Source of the DNA: Sminthopsis crassicaudata
Lineage: Eukaryota
DNA length: 64,000 bases
Direction of reading: 5' to 3'
NCBI RefSeq assembly: GCF_048593235.1
Contig: NC_133620.1
Span: 293,585,765 to 293,649,764 of the forward strand
Shown: positions 16,085 to 47,548 of the stretch, piece by piece
Layout of the letters: each line of letters begins with the position of its first letter
Position numbering within the stretch: position 1 is the first letter of the stretch
The notes under the pieces: generated by a model
Database searches by the model: none
What the model was told of the DNA's origin: nothing
The model's input: only the letters and a program-made list of their open reading frames with translations
Translations under genes and position numbers: made by a program

Positions 16085-17230
16085 TGCCCAAGCTTTAAAA
16101 ATATAAAATCAAAATACTTTAAAAATGTAAAACCTTAAGAGTTTAAAAATTTTAAATCAAAATTTAAAAATTACAAGCAATCACATAATATGTATTACCA
16201 CATCTTGTGCATATCCCAAAATTCCCTTCTCTTGTTTAGAGAAGATCTTGGGGATATAGTCTGTCAAGTAATAACTTTATTAGTAGGATTATAAGAAATG
16301 CCAATGGAATGGGCAAAATAAACTTCAATGCAAAAACATCTACAGGCAAAATATTTGTAAGCCATAATGTCCATTGGTCTTAAAACATTAAATTTCAAAC
16401 CATAAGGGTTTTGTCCTATAAGGAGCATAGGAGAGTAAAAAGAAAGATAAGCTATATAACCTTTTGCCATGCTCCTAGCTTCTTCTTTAGTTATCACAAT
16501 TTGCAAATATAGGACTAGCAGCCTGATTATAAAAGATATGATTTGAAAATCCACTCTGAAAATGGACATGTAGGGTATATTTATCTGAGCGCTTTCTCAC
16601 TCGCTCTCAAAGTTCTTAAAAGAGCTGATATCTCTTCAGTGGCCTGCCACTCATACAGTTAATGAAAAAAGGACACTCGGTTCATGATATCCCTGAATTC
16701 TTTTGCCTAAAATCAAAGTTTGAATTTCTGATACCCAATTGTACTTTAGGAAGTGTGAATCAATAAATCTGATATTACTTTTCCTTCTGGGTCAAAGATT
16801 ACACACTGTCTATTTATTCTAGTGATTAAAACAGCAATTTTCCAAACCATTCTAAAAATACTCAAAGGGAGTTGGGAAATCAAGCCCACCTGTGGAAGTG
16901 GAAAATCCACGAGGTAAGAAAAGAGGAGTTCCAATTTTCCAAAGACTATCCTAGCAGTTTTATAAGTATAAAACTCTACTTTCTCTAACTGCAAGATCTT
17001 ATCCTTGTAAGGTTTCTTAGATATTAACAGAACAGTATTTTAAAATTTTTTCTGATTATAGTCAATACACCACAATTCCTTTTTGCCTTGGGCCTTAAAA
17101 CCTACTCGCTTCTTTTGAAATGAAGACACAGGAGTTTTGAATGGATTAATGGGCAGTGCTGATGATATTATCTCCCTTCCTTTTCCTCCTCCCCCTTCTC
17201 CCTCAGCCCAAGAAGGTGGGGCTGTCAGTC
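16085..17230 (-). mobile_element. Older, disrupted relative of the internal region of the young LTR element at 42310-46270
   Basis: Reverse complement aligns to about 43545-44260; ORF 16746-16994 (QLEKVEFYTYKTARIVFGKLELLFSYLVDFPLPQV...RQCVIFDPEGK) is near-identical to residues 260-336 of the 340-aa ORF. Confidence 0.9.
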
Positions 17231-37296: not shown

Positions 37297-39681
37297 ACCC
37301 ACTTCTCTCTAAGGGAGAGCTGACGCGCTAAATGCACCCGGCTTTCCGTGGGAAGCCTTGGAGTCTGCTGTTTCTCTAAGTGCGAGGGGGGGAGGGGTGC
37401 AGGGCGGAAGGGAAAGCTGGAACACTGCCGGCCGAACTGCCGGCCGCCAGCTAGGGCTGCGGGTCCGGGTTCCTCTGACCTCTTCTCTTAGTCACCACCC
37501 CAGCAGTCAACCACCGATGCCTCAGCCTCTCAAGCCATGGCTGTTTTTTCAAATTGCGCGCACTTGTCCCGACGTGGTGCCACGGAGCGGCAATCAATGT
37601 TCTGTTTGCTTTTTGCCCTTCACCCAAGAGACCGCGGCTAGCTGTCCGTAGATGGACCTAGCTCGCCTTGCTGCCAGCTTAATAAGTCTCTGACAAATCG
37701 GCCTTCCTGCTCTTTCAGTAGAAGTCGATACGTGCCCAGGGCTGTGCTGGGGAGAGACTCAGACACACCTCCGCTCTCTCTCGATTAAGGTAGAGTTTGC
37801 CTCGGGAACTCTGCTCTACTACTCCCTTGCTTGGGACTTGCAACCCGCAACCTAAATGTCATCTCTCGGAGCTTCGGGGAGGCTGGGGAAAGGACGGGCT
37901 GGACAAAAGTGAAACTACTGATGGGTCAGCTCAGGCTACTGCTGTTACTCAGTTCGTTAATGTCTGCACGTTTTTGTTCTTTTTTTGGTATAGGCGATCG
38001 GTTATCTTCTAGGAGCTGGCCCCCTAACCTCCCTCTCTCTCCTCCCCCCATCCCCTACCCCACCCAGGTGGTGGAGGGGCTAGGGACTGGGAAACGTTGC
38101 TCTGTTCTGGTCTAATGGAAAGGGAGATTTGAAGAAGTTTTTAAGCCGGCAAAACAACCCGACAAATTCTGCCCTTTGGCTCCTTCCTTACAACTATTCC
38201 ACCGGGCTGGTCGGAACAGGGTTGATAAAGGGTCAAAAATCAGGAACATTTTCTAGTGGGAAGTCGGGGATGGATAGAGACGGAGAGGGCTCTTGTCTTC
38301 AGGGGATCATGATCAGGATTACCTTCCAGTGACACTTGAGCTAAAGAGTAAGGCTACTAAAGAGGGGGAAAGACCATGTATTCCAGGAGGGCCCAGTCTC
38401 GGAAACAACATGACATTTTGCTTGCCGTGCGCTGTACATGAGGGAGACTAGTATTCCTAGTGGATATATCTAGAATGGTTGGTTGCAAGTAGATTTATTA
38501 AGGCTTTTAAATTATCAGTAGAAAACTTGAAGTTTGATGATGCAGCAGTCACGTTCAGGAGCTAACATATATTGCTTACCGTAGAGTAGCAACTCCAGAA
38601 TAGAATATTCATATTCTTGTCATTGTAGAGTCCGGGACACCTCCGAGGTCATCTAAGGTAGTCCTCATCTTAAGTTACTTGCATTAGTCCGGACAAATAG
38701 GTAGAGTAGGATTTGAACCTGTTGTCCTGTGATTGTCCAGCCAGTACTCCTTCGCTACCATCTAAATTATATAACTAGCAGATGGGACAATAAAACTAAA
38801 TGTCCAGCTAAGTTTCCATAAATACTGTCATGATCAGTAATCACATGATGTATCATATAAATAATTTCCCTGTGATATATGCAAATCTTGAAGTCATCTA
38901 GTGTGTGTGTGTGTGGGGGGGGGCACGAGACATTTCCCCCCCCCACATGTGTGCATGCAGATGCACACTAGTGACAGGCTTAATCCTGAAACTAGATTGG
39001 GGTCTCAGACTCTCCCATGTGTTAGGATTCTTACAAGGTTCAAAGTCACTGGAATTGATAGAGAAAATAATTATCTAAGTTAGCATAGTTCAGTATGATT
39101 GATCTGATCCTACAAGGAGATGTTATAGACCAAAACTTGAAACAAGGTACTGAGTGGAACTGAGGATGCAATAGTTAAATCTAGTTTAGCATTGATTTAA
39201 TCCTACAACAAATAATTGTTTCCTAGTGAAATGATTGGTGTGTACTCAGTATGGGGCATATAAGGAGAAGCTGTCAGGGCCAGAAAGCACTAGAAGCTCT
39301 CAGAGCCTTAGCCAGGATTCAGTTGAGGAGATTCCTAAGCCAGAGAAGGCAGGCCTCTCAAAACCAAGGAGAGAGATAGGCCTCCAGAAAGCTAACCAGC
39401 CCAAGGTAGGAGACAAGAATTGGAAAGAGACAATAAAGGATTTGGACTTTAACTCCTGGCTTCATTTGGGGTGATTACTGAACTGAAACTAAGGCTGCTC
39501 CCACAGACCCCAAGAAACCTGCTCCCAGAGAACATGATATTTTAAAGAAGAGCATTATATTCTAGCGTCTGAACGTGGGACATATACAATTCTGATTTAG
39601 TGGAAAAGTCTTCTCAACCCAGAAATTAGGATGAGTACAAGGAAACTTTGTTAAAGGGCCAAAGTTGGTGCTTCAGCTAAA

Positions 39682-41200
39682 ATGGGACAGATGTTTAGAA
39701 AATATCCTGCTTTTCCTCTTCAAGGGAAATGTGTAGAGAGCATTGTCAGGGTTATGAAAAGCCAAGGTTTGATTATAATTTGGGAGCAGATCACTGAACT
39801 TTTAATAACTGTACAGTACACATCGCCTTGGTTCTTTGTGGGGAAAAAAAAAACACACAAAACTGGATCTAGAGGAATGGAAATTAGTAGGAGAGCAACT
39901 TTGTCAATCCTACAATAAAAATGGGCCTGACTCAATTTCCAAAGACACATTTAATACATATAATTTAATACAACTGGCTTTAGGAAATTATATAAGCAAT
40001 AGAATAAGGAAAACTAGGAAAGAGCAGGAGAAGGAGGATCAAATTAAACTAGGTGAAAAGGATGAAGAATCAAATAAGAATGTAGTTAAGTACAATTTGA
40101 AGTGTAGTGCTTCACAGCAGGAGAAATTAGGTCATTCCACATTCCCTGACCTACTTCCCTCAATTAACCATGGTTAACCATGGGTGGAGGGAGAAGGAGG
40201 AGGGGAAGAGGCAGTAACACAATCAGCACCACCTATGAAGCAGCCTATGACAAGATTACAAAAGGCAATGGTTAAGGCAAAAAATGAAGGACAGGATATA
40301 TCTGATTTAAAAATAAATGCATACCTTGTGATTGAAGAGCTTGATTCTTTAGGTCAAAAAAGGAGAAGATACCCTCCTTTTGATCTGGAAAAAAATTAAG
40401 GATTTGAAAAAAGGCTTGCACTCTTTATGGAGCTACATTATCTTATGTTAAGATGTTACTAGAGAATTTGGCTTATGAAATCTTAACCCCCAGTGATTGG
40501 AAATCCATAATAGCTAGGACATGTTTAGAACCTAGACAAAACCTGTTGTGGCTTTCAGAGTATAGTAAATAAGGTAGGATTCAAGCCCAATGAAATAGGC
40601 AAACTGGAGTTAACATACAAATCATTTTTGACCAACTAACAGGTGAAGATCAATATGCAGAGAATTCAGAACAGATTAATTATCCCACAATAGCATATGA
40701 GCAAATTGCTACTGCTGCAACTAAAGCTTGGGGTTCCCTTCCAGGCAAAGATGGGCGGGGGGAAGCCTTCATAAAAATAGAGTAAGGTCCCAATGAATTT
40801 TTTGCACATTTTGTGGGACATTTGCAAATAGCTGTCACAATTGTCACAAGAACCATTGGAGAAAATGCAGCTAAGAAAAATGCTAATGAGGTTTGCAGAA
40901 GAATTATATGGGGAATACACAAAGATGCTACTTTAGAGGAGATCATAAGATGCTGTGCCACAGTGGGCACAAATGCTTATTATACCCAGACTATGATGAA
41001 CATGGGAATTCAGGGTCCCTCTTGGCAAGGGACTTCTAGAGAGAGTCATTGATGTTTTCAGTGTGGAAAAAATAGGACATGTGAGAGCTCAGTGCACATA
41101 TAGAGATAGAGTAAAAAGACAGGGTAAGAAAAGACTTAAAACCCTATGTCCAAAGTGCCACAAGGGCTTCCACTAGGCCTCAGAATGTAGGAAATGAGAG
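39682..41200 (+). pseudogene. gag: Betaretroviral gag pseudogene (MA, CA, two CCHC knuckles)
   Basis: MGQ...SPWF...LDLEEWKLVGEQL...YNLIQLAL (MA); IKIE*GPNEFFAHFVGHLQ (major homology region); CFQCGKIGHVRAQC at 41053 and CPKCHKGFH*ASEC at 41147; multiple stops and frameshifts. Confidence 0.9.
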
Positions 41201-41394
41201 GCAGGGCCCAGCCCCAAGATATCATATAAAGACAGGTGGGGCATGATGGCACCTGAGTTTGCACCAGGACTCTGATGGGATCTATCAGCCGAAAAGCAGT
41301 CACATGGCAGAAAGGGATTATAATTGGGGGGAATACAGACCTTTTAAACCAGCAGGGTAGTGTCCAGTACAAACAGCTTCAATATAATTGCCAG

Positions 41395-41520
41395 ATGATG
41401 AGGAAAGATTTAGAAAGTGGTAAATAGAAGGGACTAGATAGCTTGACTGCTTGGGGAAGAGGGTTTGCTTGTATTTCTACAGATGGAGAAGAAATCAGAT
41501 GGGTGTCCATCAGAGACAGA
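41395..41520 (+). pseudogene. Betaretroviral integrase C-terminal remnant
   Basis: MMRKDLESGK*KGLDSLTAWGRGFACISTDGEEIRWV matches WKDP.TG.WKGP...WGRG.AC consensus. Confidence 0.8.
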
Positions 41521-42995
41521 CAGAAAAAGAGAAAAATCTGGAAACAAAAGAGGAGACCTAAGAACAAAATCTTGAGGAATCATTGGATTCCCTAACACAA
41601 GATGAGACTGTTGCAGGACTTGAAAACCATCAGAAATCATTGGATTCATTGAGATGAAAAATGGTTGATGAGGCTATTGCTGGACTTCAAAACTCACAGG
41701 AATATTGAATTCCTGGCACATGAAGTAAGGGACAATAGATTCCTTTTGTACTGTTTCTAGGACTTATGGACATGTATAATTCCTCATGTTGATTCATGTT
41801 ATTTGTTACATCACTACTAGCCTGTGTTACTATGGGCTTATGTAATTTTGTAATTATGTGTAATACCTCCCATATTGATGGATTTATGTATACCTGTTTT
41901 AAGAGTGAGCACCTTCAGAAACCCACTAATCTGATTTGATTTCCCATTTCCTTTGATGTTTTCATCTCCCTTTAAAAAAAGAAAATTACATCCACGGGAA
42001 AAAGCCTACTTTCCCAGACAAGCTCTTCCCAAGTTAAGTGGTGCCATTCAATTGGAGATCTTGGTCAAATCACCCTCCATTGATCTTTTGGGGATGCCCC
42101 AGTCTCTCTTCAGGAAATTCCAGTCTCTGGGGAAAAGCCTTCAAAATAATTTCATTCAATTGGAGATCTTGGTCTGATAATCAGCTCAAACTGCTCCCAG
42201 CCCCCAGGTCAAGACTTATACATAAAACAGGGGTCTGTTAACACACTCTTTGCAAAATTCCTCATTAGGATTTTACCCACTAAGAGAGCGCTTCTTAGTG
42301 AACAAGAAATGTAAGGGCCCTTTAAATGGGCGGACACAGTGCATCGGGATTGAGGCCCAGAAGTAATTTCTGTGGATATTAGGACTGCCCTTGGGCGGGA
42401 TCCTGGCCATATTGAGATAGCTTCTGACTCTCTCGCTGATTGGCTGTGTGTGTGACCTCACAGGCCCTATATAAGCCCACTGCAGGCAGCAACCGCCCTC
42501 TTTAACCTCATGCTGTTCACCCTGGCTCCTAGCCTGGGTGGCCAAGCCAAGATGGGTAGCCGAAAGAGGTAAGGATTTTGGTAGTGAACACGTGGGTCTT
42601 CTGACCAGGTGTTCACTCGGGAACCAACAAGTCAGGGCATCAGCTAGGGCATTATGTGAGTAGGTATAATAAAGGCTTTTAAGATTACACGTGGTTGTTC
42701 TTGAGTGCGCTACCGGTTATTAAGCTATAGATTCAAGAGATTGTGGCCAGAGACCTTAGAAGGCCTCAGAGGAGGCGAGCCGGGTAGAGCTCACACTGCA
42801 AAGGACAGTGGTCAAAGGTACTCTGGTGGGTCTAGGACAGACTAGTAATTATAACTGCCAGGAGAGCACGTTACAAATGGCGCTCAACGTGGACGCATCA
42901 GAAATTATCAGGTTTTGAAAATATTTAATATTCAGAATTAAGATTCTGAAAGATCCGGTAGAAACGCCACTTAAGAGGGAAGACAGAGAAGCAAT

Positions 42996-44018
42996 ATGGA
43001 CCCAGGTAAATCTGGGATCAGACTCAAGGACACAGCTGAACATAATGCTTATTATATAAAGAGGTTAAAGAGCCAGATGGAAGATCTTTTAACAAAGATC
43101 ACCACTGAAGAACAGCAGGAAGCTTGTAATCAAGCTCCCAGAAGGCTATCCCCACACCCAGTAAATATAGCTCGGAGAGGGAGCAACCTAGAGCTAATGC
43201 GATTGTATGACAGTAGAGAGTATAAAATGCCACAGCAAGAGTTGCTGGAATTGCAGGTTAAACTACAGATGGAGATAGAGAAAGAAGAAAAAGCTAGGTT
43301 ACTACAGATAGAACAGGAAGAGTTCAAACCAGTGGCTGAAACTAAGGAAGGAAATAAACGAACCACATGGACTAAAGTTGTAGAAATTCTTCTTAGCGTT
43401 TTGTTGGTTTACCTTGTGCATTGTTGTTTTAAGGAATTTATTGATTACTCTTCCATTGAGAAGTTTAGTTCTTTTTATGTGCAAAGCTCAGGTTTGATTT
43501 TAAATCAGCCTTTGGGGAATTTTCCAATTCTTCTTCCCTCTGCCTCACCTTCTTGGGCCAAGGGAGAAGGGGGAGGAGGAAAAGGAAGGGCGATAATACC
43601 ATCAGCACTGCCCATTAATCCATTCAAAACTCCTGTGTCTTCATTTCAAAGGACAGGAGTAGGCTTTATGCCCCAAGGCAAAAAGGAATTGTGGGGTATT
43701 GAGTATAATCAGAAAAGTTTTAAAAATACAGTTCAGTTAATTTCTAAGAAACCTTACAGGGATAAGACCTTGCAGTTAGAGAGAGTGGAGTTTTATACTT
43801 GTAAAACTGCTAGGATCGTCTTTGGAGAGTTGAAACTCCTCTTTTCTTACCTCGTGGATTTTCCACTTCCACAGGTGAGCTTGATTTCCCAACCCCCTAC
43901 GGGTACTTATAAAACAGTGTTTATGTCTAGAATGGGTTGGAAAATTGTTGTTTTAATCACTAGAATAAATAGACAGTGTGTGATCTTTGACCCAGGAGGA
44001 AAATATCAGATTTATTGA
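42996..44018 (+). CDS. Open 340-aa ORF of unknown function in the gag position of the young LTR element (coiled coil, hydrophobic segment, weakly Gag-like C-terminal half)
   Basis: ATG 100 nt after the PBS, uninterrupted for 340 codons in AT-rich DNA; residues 79-111 E/Q/K/L heptad-like; 128-145 VVEILLSVLLVYLVHCCF hydrophobic. Expression not shown. Confidence 0.6.
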   Translation: MDPGKSGIRLKDTAEHNAYYIKRLKSQMEDLLTKITTEEQQEACNQAPRRLSPHPVNIARRGSNLELMRLYDSREYKMPQQELLELQVKLQMEIEKEEKARLLQIEQEEFKPVAETKEGNKRTTWTKVVEILLSVLLVYLVHCCFKEFIDYSSIEKFSSFYVQSSGLILNQPLGNFPILLPSASPSWAKGEGGGGKGRAIIPSALPINPFKTPVSSFQRTGVGFMPQGKKELWGIEYNQKSFKNTVQLISKKPYRDKTLQLERVEFYTCKTARIVFGELKLLFSYLVDFPLPQVSLISQPPTGTYKTVFMSRMGWKIVVLITRINRQCVIFDPGGKYQIY

Positions 44019-44197
44019 TTCACACTCCTGGAGTACAATTCGGTATCAGAAACTCAAACTTTGATTTTTAGGCAAAAGAATTCAGGGATATAGCCGAGTG
44101 TTCTAGTAAAGTCATTACTGCACAGACTATCCCCAAGATCTTCTCTTCTAAACAAGAGAAGGGAATTTTGGGATATGTGATTGCTTACAATTTTTAA

Positions 44198-44341
44198 ATT
44201 TTGATTTTACATTTTAAAACATTTTTGATTTTACATCTTCAAAGTATTTTGATTTTACATTTTAAAGTTATTTTGGTTTTATATTTTTAATCTATTTCGG
44301 TTTTACACTTTTAAATTATTTTGGTTTTACATTTTTAAATT
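44198..44341. repeat. Six degenerate copies of a ~24-bp AT-rich unit (ATTTTG(A/G)TTTTACATTTTAAA)
   Basis: Visible tandem periodicity; remnants also at about 16092-16170 on the minus strand. Confidence 0.8.
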
Positions 44342-44454
44342 CTTTGCATTTTACCTTAGCAATGCACTTCGGGCATACACAGAAAGTGCAGCTAAGTGAC
44401 AGACTGACTTTTGTCTGACTTGTTAATCTTTTTGACAACAACTTTGTTTCCACT

Positions 44455-44575
44455 GTGATGTGGAAAGGCCTGGATGGCATTTGGAAAGGCCCAAGTTGGG
44501 CCCCAGGGACATTCCTTCCTAGGTGCAGATCCAGCAGCAGAGTTCATCCCCACCAGAGACATTTGTAACCTGGGG
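44455..44575 (+). pseudogene. Integrase C-terminal remnant inside the young LTR element
   Basis: VMWKGLDGIWKGP at 44455-44493, then frameshifted GPQGHSFLGADPAAEFIPTRDI; resembles beta-type IN tail. Confidence 0.65.
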
Positions 44576-44939
44576 ATCCAAGAGAAGGACCAGACAACAG
44601 TCCAGAGAGACCAGCCAGATGTCCTCAGCCCTTCAGACGCTGATGGCAGCGATGCCCCTCCTGACCGTGACACCAGAGACAGCAGACACGGTTCCAGTGT
44701 TGCAGCTGAGATGGACTGTTTTGGGTGATACGCAATATAAAGACTGTAAATGGACAATGGGCCTGCTTGCTTCTCCCGTGGCCACTTGCCATATGGTGGC
44801 CTGGGAAGAGGCTTTGCCCTATGCTTTCTATTGAAGGACTATGCTTTTAAATTAGTGGGTGAAAAACCAACACACCCACCTGCCATTGTTATTGAGACAA
44901 TGTTACTGGACATGACTTTGCTTATGTGCACCTGTGAAA

Positions 44940-45380
44940 CTAGAATTGTTCTAGAATTGTGAAAAGTGCAATAGAGAATTGTGATAAGCTAGAATTGTTC
45001 TAGGATTGTGAAAAGTGCAATAGAGAATTGTGATAAAGCTAGAATTGTTCTAGAATTGTGAAAAAGTGCAATTGAGAATTGTGATAAACTAGAATTGTTC
45101 TAGGATTGTGACAAGTGCAATTGAGAATTGTGATAAGCTAGAATTGTTCTAGAATTGTGACAAGTGCAATTGAGAATTGTGATAAGCTAGAATTGTTCTA
45201 GAATTGTGAAAAGTGCAATAGAGAATTGTGATAAGCTAGAATTGCTCTAGGATTGTGAAAAGTGCAATAGAGAATTGTGATAAGCTAGAATTGTTCTAGG
45301 AGTGTGAAAAGTGCAACAGAAAATTGTAAGAAACTAGAATTGGTCTAGAACTGTGATAAATGTAACTAGAATTGTGACAA
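44940..45380. repeat. Tandem array of a 49-bp unit, 8 full copies plus a degenerate ninth
   Basis: Unit CTAGAATTGTTCTAGAATTGTGAAAAGTGCAATAGAGAATTGTGATAAG starting at 44940, 44989, 45039, 45089, 45138, 45187, 45236, 45285. Confidence 0.97.
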
Positions 45381-45524
45381 CCTACCTCACTGATATTTGT
45401 TAACTAGAATTGTGATGTTTTACCTTGTTGACTTCCCACCTCAGTGTTGACATCCTACCTCATTGGCATCCAATCTCTTTGGCCTATTATCTCGAGTATG
45501 ACTTTGATGAATGGGTTGAACATT

Positions 45525-45696
45525 TGGGCCACTGTTGAGCCTGGTTCTCATTGTCATACTTCTGTTTACTGATCTGCTGCTTTGTACCTCCTTGGGCATA
45601 ACACTCTGTCATCTCATGGACCAAGTAAACTATAGCTGGTGCTAAAAGTTTAGCTTGGTGAGATGTGCGGTTCCCGCAAAACAAGAGAAAGGGAAT
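45525..45696 (+). pseudogene. Probable env membrane-anchor and cytoplasmic tail remnant
   Basis: Frameshifted GPLLSLVLIVILL / LLICCFVPP ... QNKRKG running into the PPT, as env ends do in beta-like ERVs. Confidence 0.5.
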
Positions 45697-47548
45697 TGTA
45701 AGGGCCCTTTAAATGGGCGGACACAGTGCATCGGGATTGAGGCCCAGAAGTAATTTCTGTGGATATTAGGACTGCCCTTGGGCGGGATCCTGGCCATATT
45801 GAGATAGCTTCGTAATGGGTGACTCTCTCGCTGATTGGCTGTGTGTGTGACCTCACAGGCCCTATATAAGCCCACTGCAGGCAGCAACCGCCCTCTTTAA
45901 CCTCATGCTGTTCACCCTGGCTCCTAGCCTGGGTGGCCAAGCCAAGATGGGTAGCCGAAAGAGGTAAGGATTTTGGTAGTGAACACGTGGGTCTTCTGAC
46001 CAGGTGTTCACTCGGGAACCAACAAGTCAGGGCATCAGCTAGGGCATTATGTGAGTAGGTATAATAAAGGCTTTTAAGATTACACGTGGTTGTTCTTGAG
46101 TGCGCTACCGGTTATTAAGCTATAGATTCAAGAGATTGTGGCCAGAGACCTTAGAAGGCCTCAGAGGAGGCGAGCCGGGTAGAGCTCACACTGCAAAGGA
46201 CAGTGGTCAAAGGTACTCTGGTGGGTCTAGGACAGACTAGTAATTATAACTGCCAGGAGAGCACGTTACAAAGAAAAATTCTTTTTTTGCCACAAATTTT
46301 GGGGTTTGCAAATTCTTTCACATTTGGACCTGCTTCTCTGAGCATAGGGGATCTCTCCCCCTATTCCCACACCTCAACATTAGAAATGAGGTTTGTGATT
46401 TGTTTCTCTGTAAAATAATTTCCTAATTACTCCTCTTTCTGGCTAGAATTTTATAGAATCTCTATATATAGATTTTATAAGGATCACAGTATTCCAACAT
46501 TTACTGATAGCTTCTATCAGAGAGGAGAGCTGACAAGATGTGGTAAGATCTAGTCAAGGCAAGCAATACATTATATCCCTCACTCCCCACCCCAATCTGA
46601 AAATTCGTAGTCATAAATAAATAAATATTTGGCCTATTTGTCTGTTACTAGATGTATATGTCTATATGGAATAAGGTCCTTTAATGCTTCAAAAGGATTT
46701 AAGAATTTGATACAGCTGTTTGTAGGACCCAGCTATTATTTTATTGATTCTTGAAATTAAATCTGAAACATCTTCAGTGTAGTTTGGAGAGGAAAATTTT
46801 AATATGAAGTTTTCTTAGATGGATGCAAATTATGGAATATTTTGTGTATATCAAGGGGAAATTCAACCTTATTTAAGTTTGTTTTCTAATATGGGAATAA
46901 CATTTTGTCCCATGTGTCCCATGGCACAAACATATTTTCTTATTTAAAAAACAAACAAAACTTATTTGTTATGCACAGGCCAAGCTATACACAATTGGCT
47001 TGCTGATGCAGCCACAAAAGAGGTTGTTGGCCTATCTATTACACTGGGCTTCTTACTCCTACACGTCCCCCCACCTCCTACCTTCAATCAGAGACATCTT
47101 CAAGTAAAAAGAGAAAGCATTTATTTGGTTACTGCAGGAAGAGGCCCAGGCACACCCAGGAGCCATCCCAACTCCTGCCATGTGCTCCTGGAACATGGCC
47201 AGCTTCAAGCTTGTCCAGGAATTACAAGCTAAAGATGCAAGCCTTTTCATTGGATATACTAAAAGGACATAAACCATCCTTGACTAATGTTATCTGCTTC
47301 CTGTGGGCATGAGTTCTTGAGGATTTGACCTTTAGAGATCCCTGCAGAATGTCTTCAATATTTCTGTTCTGTGAGATAGAATTTGTTAGGGGAAAAAAAA
47401 AAAATAAAGAAAAAGGCCTGACTTTCCTGTAAGTTCAAGCTCTGACCAAAGTGGGAACTTCAGGAAAAGTTTGTTTGAGAATAATGATCAGGAATTTAGC
47501 AATTGGTCATTTCAAGATTCCAAAGCAATTCAATTAAATTGGGACCTA

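Follow-up and report, generated by a model that had tools for sequence, protein, structure and literature searches.

Selection keeps open a gag-pro fusion frame in a young non-autonomous class II retroelement family of Sminthopsis crassicaudata

Closest described systems

Non-autonomous endogenous retroviruses (ERVs) are usually treated as non-coding. The described system closest to the element considered here is mouse IAP 1-delta-1, for which the primary study is reportedly that of Saito et al. 2008. There, an in-frame deletion produces a gag-pol fusion that aids retrotransposition in cis, with a helper still needed (excerpts of PMC6466679 and PMC7411935), and successful non-autonomous bovine ERVs without full-length ORFs have also been described (excerpts of PMC10924933). 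Apart from IAP 1-delta-1, our literature search, thin in its coverage of subscription journals, found no described non-autonomous ERV in which a translated frame is retained to further the element's own spread, and no description of the present element.

This element lies in a 64,000-nt stretch of Sminthopsis crassicaudata DNA (contig NC_133620.1, positions 293,585,765 to 293,649,764), hereafter the window. The window family resembles the mouse system in being class II, env-less, helper-dependent and highly successful, with an in-frame internal deletion that leaves one fusion ORF; like IAP 1-delta-1-type elements in general, it has no RT or integrase, and its single frame was selected during mobilisation. 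The two differ in what was joined, a 1.9-kb deletion in IAP itself giving gag-pol, whereas in the window family gag is joined to pro, with capsid and nucleocapsid gone. Furthermore, unlike in IAP 1-delta-1, the Pro part is only 31-37% identical to that of the parent, the front 160 residues appear to be new, and none of the autonomous copies tested has a matching LTR.

Among dasyurids, the env-less betaretrovirus MEBrv 3 has been reported as abundant and young, with gag, pro and pol intact, a length of 7.3 kb and a 469-bp LTR (excerpts of PMC11334065); its main text nowhere mentions dUTPase or non-autonomous elements. The parental family of the window element fits MEBrv 3 by description rather than by sequence comparison, and the parent copy that we examined differs in size and LTR length (6.6 kb, with 534-bp LTRs).

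MLV glyco-Gag, a class I protein, is of type II, with a cytosolic N-terminus, an anchor and a Gag-derived lumenal part. The window ORF shares this layout by prediction, but it starts at an AUG, holds no full Gag and no sequons, belongs to class II and ends in a dUTPase-like C-terminus; with no sequon and only about 45 Gag residues, it falls outside the glyco-Gag proteins. Adenovirus E4-ORF1 and herpesvirus dUTPase-related proteins have dUTPase ancestry, have lost the catalytic motifs and perform non-enzymatic roles. Compared with these viral pseudo-enzymes, the window ORF shares the loss of motifs and differs in its retroviral origin, its fusion to a predicted membrane anchor and its weak constraint. 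IAP gained an ER signal ahead of Gag (excerpts of bioRxiv 10.1101/2022.06.22.497016), and Ty1 RNA reaches its assembly sites via SRP-coupled translation (excerpts of PMC3945221). The window ORF is similar in carrying a hydrophobic segment ahead of Gag sequence in an env-less element, whereas the IAP Gag and Ty1 segments lead a functional capsid protein and the window ORF has a predicted internal anchor after 127 residues, in a protein with no particle-forming capacity.

Structure of the element and ancestry of its ORF

The complete LTR element spans 42310-46270 of the window (3.96 kb; Table 1) and is very young; its 5' and 3' LTRs are identical at 568/568 aligned bases and differ by one 8-nt indel. 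It carries the hallmarks of a class II LTR element, with paired TG...CA LTRs, a 6-bp target duplication, a PBS-like site, which we take to be of the tRNA-Lys type, and a purine tract. An initial annotation made from the window's letters had proposed a non-autonomous, parasitic class II LTR element, a proposal now supported by the LTRs, by the collinear blocks described below and by the missing RT and integrase. It had also pointed to an open ORF beginning 100 nt after the PBS and lacking Gly2, and the window reads exactly so: the 340-aa ORF is uninterrupted, and within the element it is the only ATG-started frame of at least 100 codons. Its length reflects a 4-nt deletion near codon 336, present in 27/95 sampled copies including the window copy, which cuts the 358-360 aa frame to 339-341 aa.

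Table 1. Features of the element and of related sequences, in window coordinates
Feature	Position	Strand	Remarks
Target-site duplication, 6 bp, left copy	42304..42309	+	Right copy at 46271-46276; from sequence
5' LTR, TG...CA	42310..42875	+	TATA-like site near 42468; polyA signal at 42668
Primer-binding site, 18 nt, PBS-like	42878..42895	+	Similar sites in autonomous class II copies
340-aa ORF	42996..44018	+	Short form of the 358-360 aa family frame
Residues 1-127, charged helical, possible coiled coil	42996..43376	+	No homologue found; strongest constraint within the ORF
Predicted transmembrane / signal-anchor helix, residues 128-146	43377..43433	+	Hydropathy
Gag pre-capsid segment, residues about 174-219	43515..43652	+	Profile, hhalign and DNA comparisons
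Degenerate dUTPase-like domain from Pro start	43758..44094	+	Residues 255-334 here; DNA homology extends beyond the window copy's early stop; DNA E 1e-17
Integrase-core remnant, tail	44100..44190	+	Remainder after ~440-490 nt deletion; older copies lack the deletion
T-rich 24-nt tandem array, 57% T	44198..44354	+	Begins 180 nt past the stop codon
Integrase C-terminal remnant, weak	44419..44568	+	One weak tblastx block
49-nt tandem array, 9.2 copies	44933..45384	+	In the 3' interior
3' LTR	45697..46270	+	Purine tract just ahead
Older same-family fragment	16090..17225	-	3' half of ORF region plus RNase H/integrase scraps
Neighbouring decayed class II ERV, gag-bearing	39020..41700	+	Member of the parental family

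The surroundings of the element are themselves rearranged, with histone genes and flanking repeats forming a large inverted duplication (25279-61348) near whose axis the element sits. The 49-nt array varies in copy number, and in the parent its position is taken by a short tandem array of another kind.

The ORF protein has a single hydrophobic window (Kyte-Doolittle 19-mer 2.08, residues 127/128-146), which contains the CC pair and corresponds to the segment first noticed; the reported absence of N-glycosylation sequons (N-X-S/T) also holds. Helix flank charges of +2 before and -1 after make a type II membrane layout with a cytosolic N-terminus plausible, in line with the anchor originally suggested. 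The heptad-rich stretch of the initial annotation is indeed rich in E, Q, K and L at residues 68-112, but its heptad order is modest (6/13 a/d positions hydrophobic in the best register), and by composition a coiled coil near these residues is plausible. A Pfam search of the ORF gave no Gag match and a single sub-threshold match, on the helix; a PDB sequence search with the ORF domain returned nothing significant, and AlphaFold models were of low confidence (pLDDT 35 and 38), with a best fold-search Z of 4.2.

Called an orphan at the outset, the ORF deserves the name for residues 1-160, for which no homologue was found among the sequences compared; about half of the frame is traceable to a known kind of provirus. 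Derivation of residues 1-175 from the parent matrix or leader was rejected, with scores at shuffle level, and the same residues matched none of the shorter database proteins. Protein searches with the ORF matched Sminthopsis crassicaudata family members only and no homologue from another species; eight family proteins stand in RefSeq as uncharacterized genes of this species.

The suggested likeness to the pre-capsid region of Gag lies above chance, though limited to the short piece at residues about 174-219. Compared with the neighbour's pre-capsid gag, the ORF matches at 68% over 91 nt (E 4e-5), the protein score is reached by 0/500 local shuffles, and a family profile gives E 2e-8 and hhalign a probability of 92 (E 7e-7); the Gag content of the ORF amounts to only about 45 residues. 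The further suggestion of a capsid N-terminal helix and a diverged capsid C-terminus failed: against parent capsid and nucleocapsid, residues 230-359 score 23, a value that 952/1000 shuffles reach, and a global alignment held register but reached a probability of only 11. Matrix and capsid comparisons at shuffle level and the missing zinc-knuckle domains likewise speak against identity of the ORF as a retroviral Gag.

The same residues 230-359 score 120 against the domain at the dUTPase position of the parent, and 0/1000 shuffles reach this value. The C-terminal third, which had resembled dUTPase by eye before profiles were made, matches the beginning of Pro in a betaretrovirus family that lacks env and resides in this genome; the domain there is dUTPase-like but motif-less. 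This link emerged through the match of older copies to the pro region behind gag. A profile of the parent domain finds the 359-aa form with 43 bits (E 2e-15, residues 255-349) and the window protein with 26 bits (E 3e-10), the best of 3000 shuffles reaching 8.2. In the parent, this domain is located between nucleocapsid and protease, the genomic position of dUTPase. Compared with dUTPases, it gives a Pfam E of 0.005 (below the cut-off), PDB dUTPase entries as best matches (E 0.023) and an hhalign probability of 93 (E 4e-7); a protein search with it found no match. Canonical ERV dUTPase profiles from the same genome, compared with the ORF directly, gave no score above shuffles. Since the ORF connects to the parent domain and the parent domain to dUTPases, the homology is a two-step one, by which the C-terminus of the ORF appears to be dUTPase-derived. 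The positions of the five conserved catalytic motifs are replaced in parent and ORF alike in a three-way alignment of natural sequences, so that neither has the motif set of an active trimeric dUTPase.

A DNA profile of older copies (n=22), placed on one natural parent copy, gave four collinear blocks in gag, at the start of pro, at the end of RNase H and in integrase, with E values from 7e-7 to 2e-26. Between the gag and pro blocks lie ~1170 nt of capsid and nucleocapsid in the parent and ~140 nt in the family element, and the older copies hold degenerate protease, RNase H and integrase scraps in the parental order. The ancestry of residues 174-219 and 255-359 is established, matrix, capsid, nucleocapsid and functional enzymes have been lost, and the ORF is a gag-pro fusion created by an in-frame deletion and headed by a new N-terminal part with a predicted membrane anchor.

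The parental family is young and abundant, and in the four copies read, gag and pro occupy a single 787-codon frame, pol is intact and no long env frame is found. Betaretroviruses normally frameshift between gag and pro; here an uninterrupted gag-pro frame runs from an ATG in many places (L299:1646-4036, also L300-L302), its dUTPase-position domain lacking the catalytic motifs. Parent Gag begins Met-Gly, so parent particles need not form at the ER. No LTR similarity to a helper was found among four parent-type copies and four other class II loci. One locus considered as an autonomous partner (L110) was rejected, having an LTR and PBS followed by unrelated sequence.

Copies of the family and selection on the frame

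A DNA search of the genome returned 1185 first-look candidates, 40 of which were scored (97-100% identity), and a protein search yielded 119 scored copies, 116 of them without an internal stop; both searches favour intact copies. A fairer sample of 100 loci was drawn through two exact patterns that lie beyond the ORF and match 181 and 105 times in the genome, taking the first places listed, on contigs 1 and 2; three duplicates and two loci without the ORF region were dropped, leaving 95, and exact patterns favour young copies. In this ORF-blind sample, an ATG followed by at least 330 open codons is present in 70/95 copies and 25/95 are already broken, which upholds the earlier claim that the ORF stayed intact across copies while pol and env were lost.

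LTR pairs diverge by a median of 0.52% (range 0-5.8%; 31/39 whole elements, with >300 aligned bases). Over the ORF, older copies share ~92-96% identity with young ones, and behind it they are longer by 440-490 bases, the young subfamily having deleted most of the integrase remnant. In 30/30 older copies (L303-L332, about 1680-2100) a degenerate integrase frame is open for 88-174 codons, its catalytic and zinc residues gone. The PBS also differs between older and younger copies (L174, L178, L185; L299; L333), and the young form is nearer to that of a second active class II family, with identical 451-bp LTRs (L333, L334), than to that of the parent, hinting at a possible helper switch. One family copy (L121) immediately precedes the gag of an unrelated class II ERV and points the same way. 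Four sequencing runs guessed to be RNA covered all 30 bins, a coverage that cannot show expression; 71-76% of the ORF words occur in runs whose labels name three other organisms, and likewise in the main-organism runs, related species and mixed samples being indistinguishable as the source.

Selection was assessed on 113 copies covering >900 nt (92 pattern-sampled and 21 older), with variants classed column by column. In the first 1000 nt, indels common to at least three copies are in frame in 9/9 cases (12/15 at two or more copies), against 22/75 private indels (p 5e-5); among shared non-coding indels in the LTR and 3' parts of 39 elements, counted with equivalent placements merged by hand, 1/12 are multiples of three (p 3e-5 versus the ORF). 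Five of the nine in-frame shared indels are 3-nt changes in short repeats, which slippage could yield. Shared stops are likewise scarce, with 2 observed versus 8.5 expected (p 0.009), and these two are scattered on the copy tree, requiring five changes for seven copies and six for six, which argues that they recurred rather than being inherited; the tree itself is poorly resolved and suggests recombination. Inherited frameshifts are confined to the last 25 codons. These patterns show that selection held the frame open while the family was being copied.

Retention is strong for the frame and weak for the individual residues. Synonymous and replacement codons stand at 60:127 among shared and 87:338 among private changes (p 0.003), and the omega-like ratio of shared changes is 0.64 with CpG-related sites (p 0.004) and 0.74 without them (p 0.10), private changes being near neutral at about 1.0-1.1. 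Constraint is strongest at residues 2-127 (0.5-0.6, p 0.03-0.06, in regional tests that are many and borderline) and undetectable at residues 231-359 (0.8-1.1, for variants in at least three copies), where an apparent replacement excess was not significant in a pooled test. The helix shows no synonymous excess at its few sites, and its hydropathy stays at or above 1.6 in 110/113 copies. No significant contrast was found within the 90 young copies alone, and column differences between old and young copies gave an omega-like ratio of 1.08 from few sites. Of the integrity and dN/dS comparison that the initial annotation had put forward, the expectation for the frame was thus borne out, while amino-acid constraint proved modest only (0.64-0.74).

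Possible roles of the open frame

We regard the element as a non-autonomous deletion derivative of an env-less marsupial betaretrovirus whose fusion frame, by being translated, probably helps its own RNA to be packaged by a helper virus, an explanation to which we give about an even chance. The benefit probably arises in cis, as reported for mouse IAP 1-delta-1, because copies with a broken frame leave no descendants even though complementation by hundreds of intact ones would be available. By the most likely route, for which the ER signal of IAP Gag and the SRP-coupled translation of Ty1 RNA are precedents, the nascent signal anchor would draw the RNA under translation to the membrane, of the ER or another compartment, at which helper particles form; as a second contribution, reading to the natural stop could spare the unspliced RNA from nonsense-mediated decay, and the dUTPase-like part would be a passenger or scaffold, probably not an enzyme. 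We favour the membrane route, with decay protection contributing, since the strongest constraint falls in the new N-terminal part and the helix has been retained. Counting against this reading are the weak amino-acid constraint, the possible slippage origin of five shared indels, the lack of LTR similarity to any autonomous copy tested and the Met-Gly start of parent Gag. More tentatively, the product could be a new membrane protein, in which a de novo cytosolic coiled coil and anchor joined to a retroviral pseudo-dUTPase steer their own translating RNA to the helper's assembly membrane; if true, it would stand as the first accessory protein made from a retroviral pseudo-dUTPase, and one that is evolving across a thousand live copies.

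Translation alone might matter instead, the ribosome having to stop close to the T-rich array, a candidate RNA-stability element, so that the RNA escapes nonsense-mediated decay while the protein is inert. We consider this a possibility of rather low probability, although several observations suit it: frame and stops are under strong selection and amino acids under weak selection, frameshifts at the 3' end are tolerated, the array (57% T) lies 180 nt past the stop after young copies deleted ~440-490 nt in between, and even the ruined integrase frame stayed open for 88-174 codons in 30/30 older copies. Position-dependent protection from decay is documented for the Rous sarcoma virus stability element, with its CU-rich sites (excerpts of PMC4764554), but the array, unlike those sites, is U-rich with little C (9%). 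Moreover, older copies spread with their stop ~650 nt from the array, and an inert protein would not account for the depletion of shared replacements (p 0.003), mostly N-terminal, or for a helix that is hydrophobic in 110/113 copies. An accessory or interference role in trans, as the initial annotation had it, is less likely than a benefit in cis. The candidate would be a membrane protein of the glyco-Gag or pseudo-dUTPase sort, acting against a host defence or adjusting the helper virus; if one product served all copies, those with a broken frame should be able to spread too, yet such frames are not passed on despite hundreds of intact copies. The plausible type II layout, the existence of viral dUTPase-derived proteins with non-enzymatic roles and the motif-less domain that the parent keeps in many intact copies leave such a protein some standing, but the dUTPase-like part is without clear purifying selection, 27/95 copies lose the last 20 residues, and both sequon and capsid are absent, so that we judge it unlikely.

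That the frame is simply young and undecayed, with no selection on it, is largely refuted and seems to us very improbable. LTR pairs with a median divergence of 0.52%, neutral private changes and 25/95 broken copies would agree with it, but youth leaves unexplained why inherited indels are biased to the frame only inside the ORF (p 3e-5), and the frame stayed open while dropping to 31-37% identity with the parent. We give just as little credence to a host-domesticated restriction factor like Fv1 or enJSRV Gag: RefSeq does list eight family proteins as uncharacterised genes of Sminthopsis crassicaudata, but a family of ~1000 candidate copies scattered over the genome, with identical LTRs and neutral decay once inserted, speaks against domestication, and protein searches found no homologue in another species. 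Fv1 and enJSRV Gag, moreover, restrict through their capsid domain, which is deleted here.

With ~1000 copies serving as natural replicates, the family allows frame, stops and amino acids to be scored separately, and host data can then be used to test why a defective retroelement has to be translated. It also illustrates how viral genes drift past Pfam recognition while a frame survives; gene-based ERV screens would miss the family, and its products are filed as uncharacterised host genes. The parent, very active, is of interest in its own right for its joint gag-pro frame and for a dUTPase-like domain without the motifs. Elsewhere in the genome, the smallest chromosome-scale contig holds ~18 clustered dUTPase-like frames of ~134 codons with altered motifs (C7:28.0-29.25 Mb, L124-L130), possibly an amplified ERV-derived gene family.
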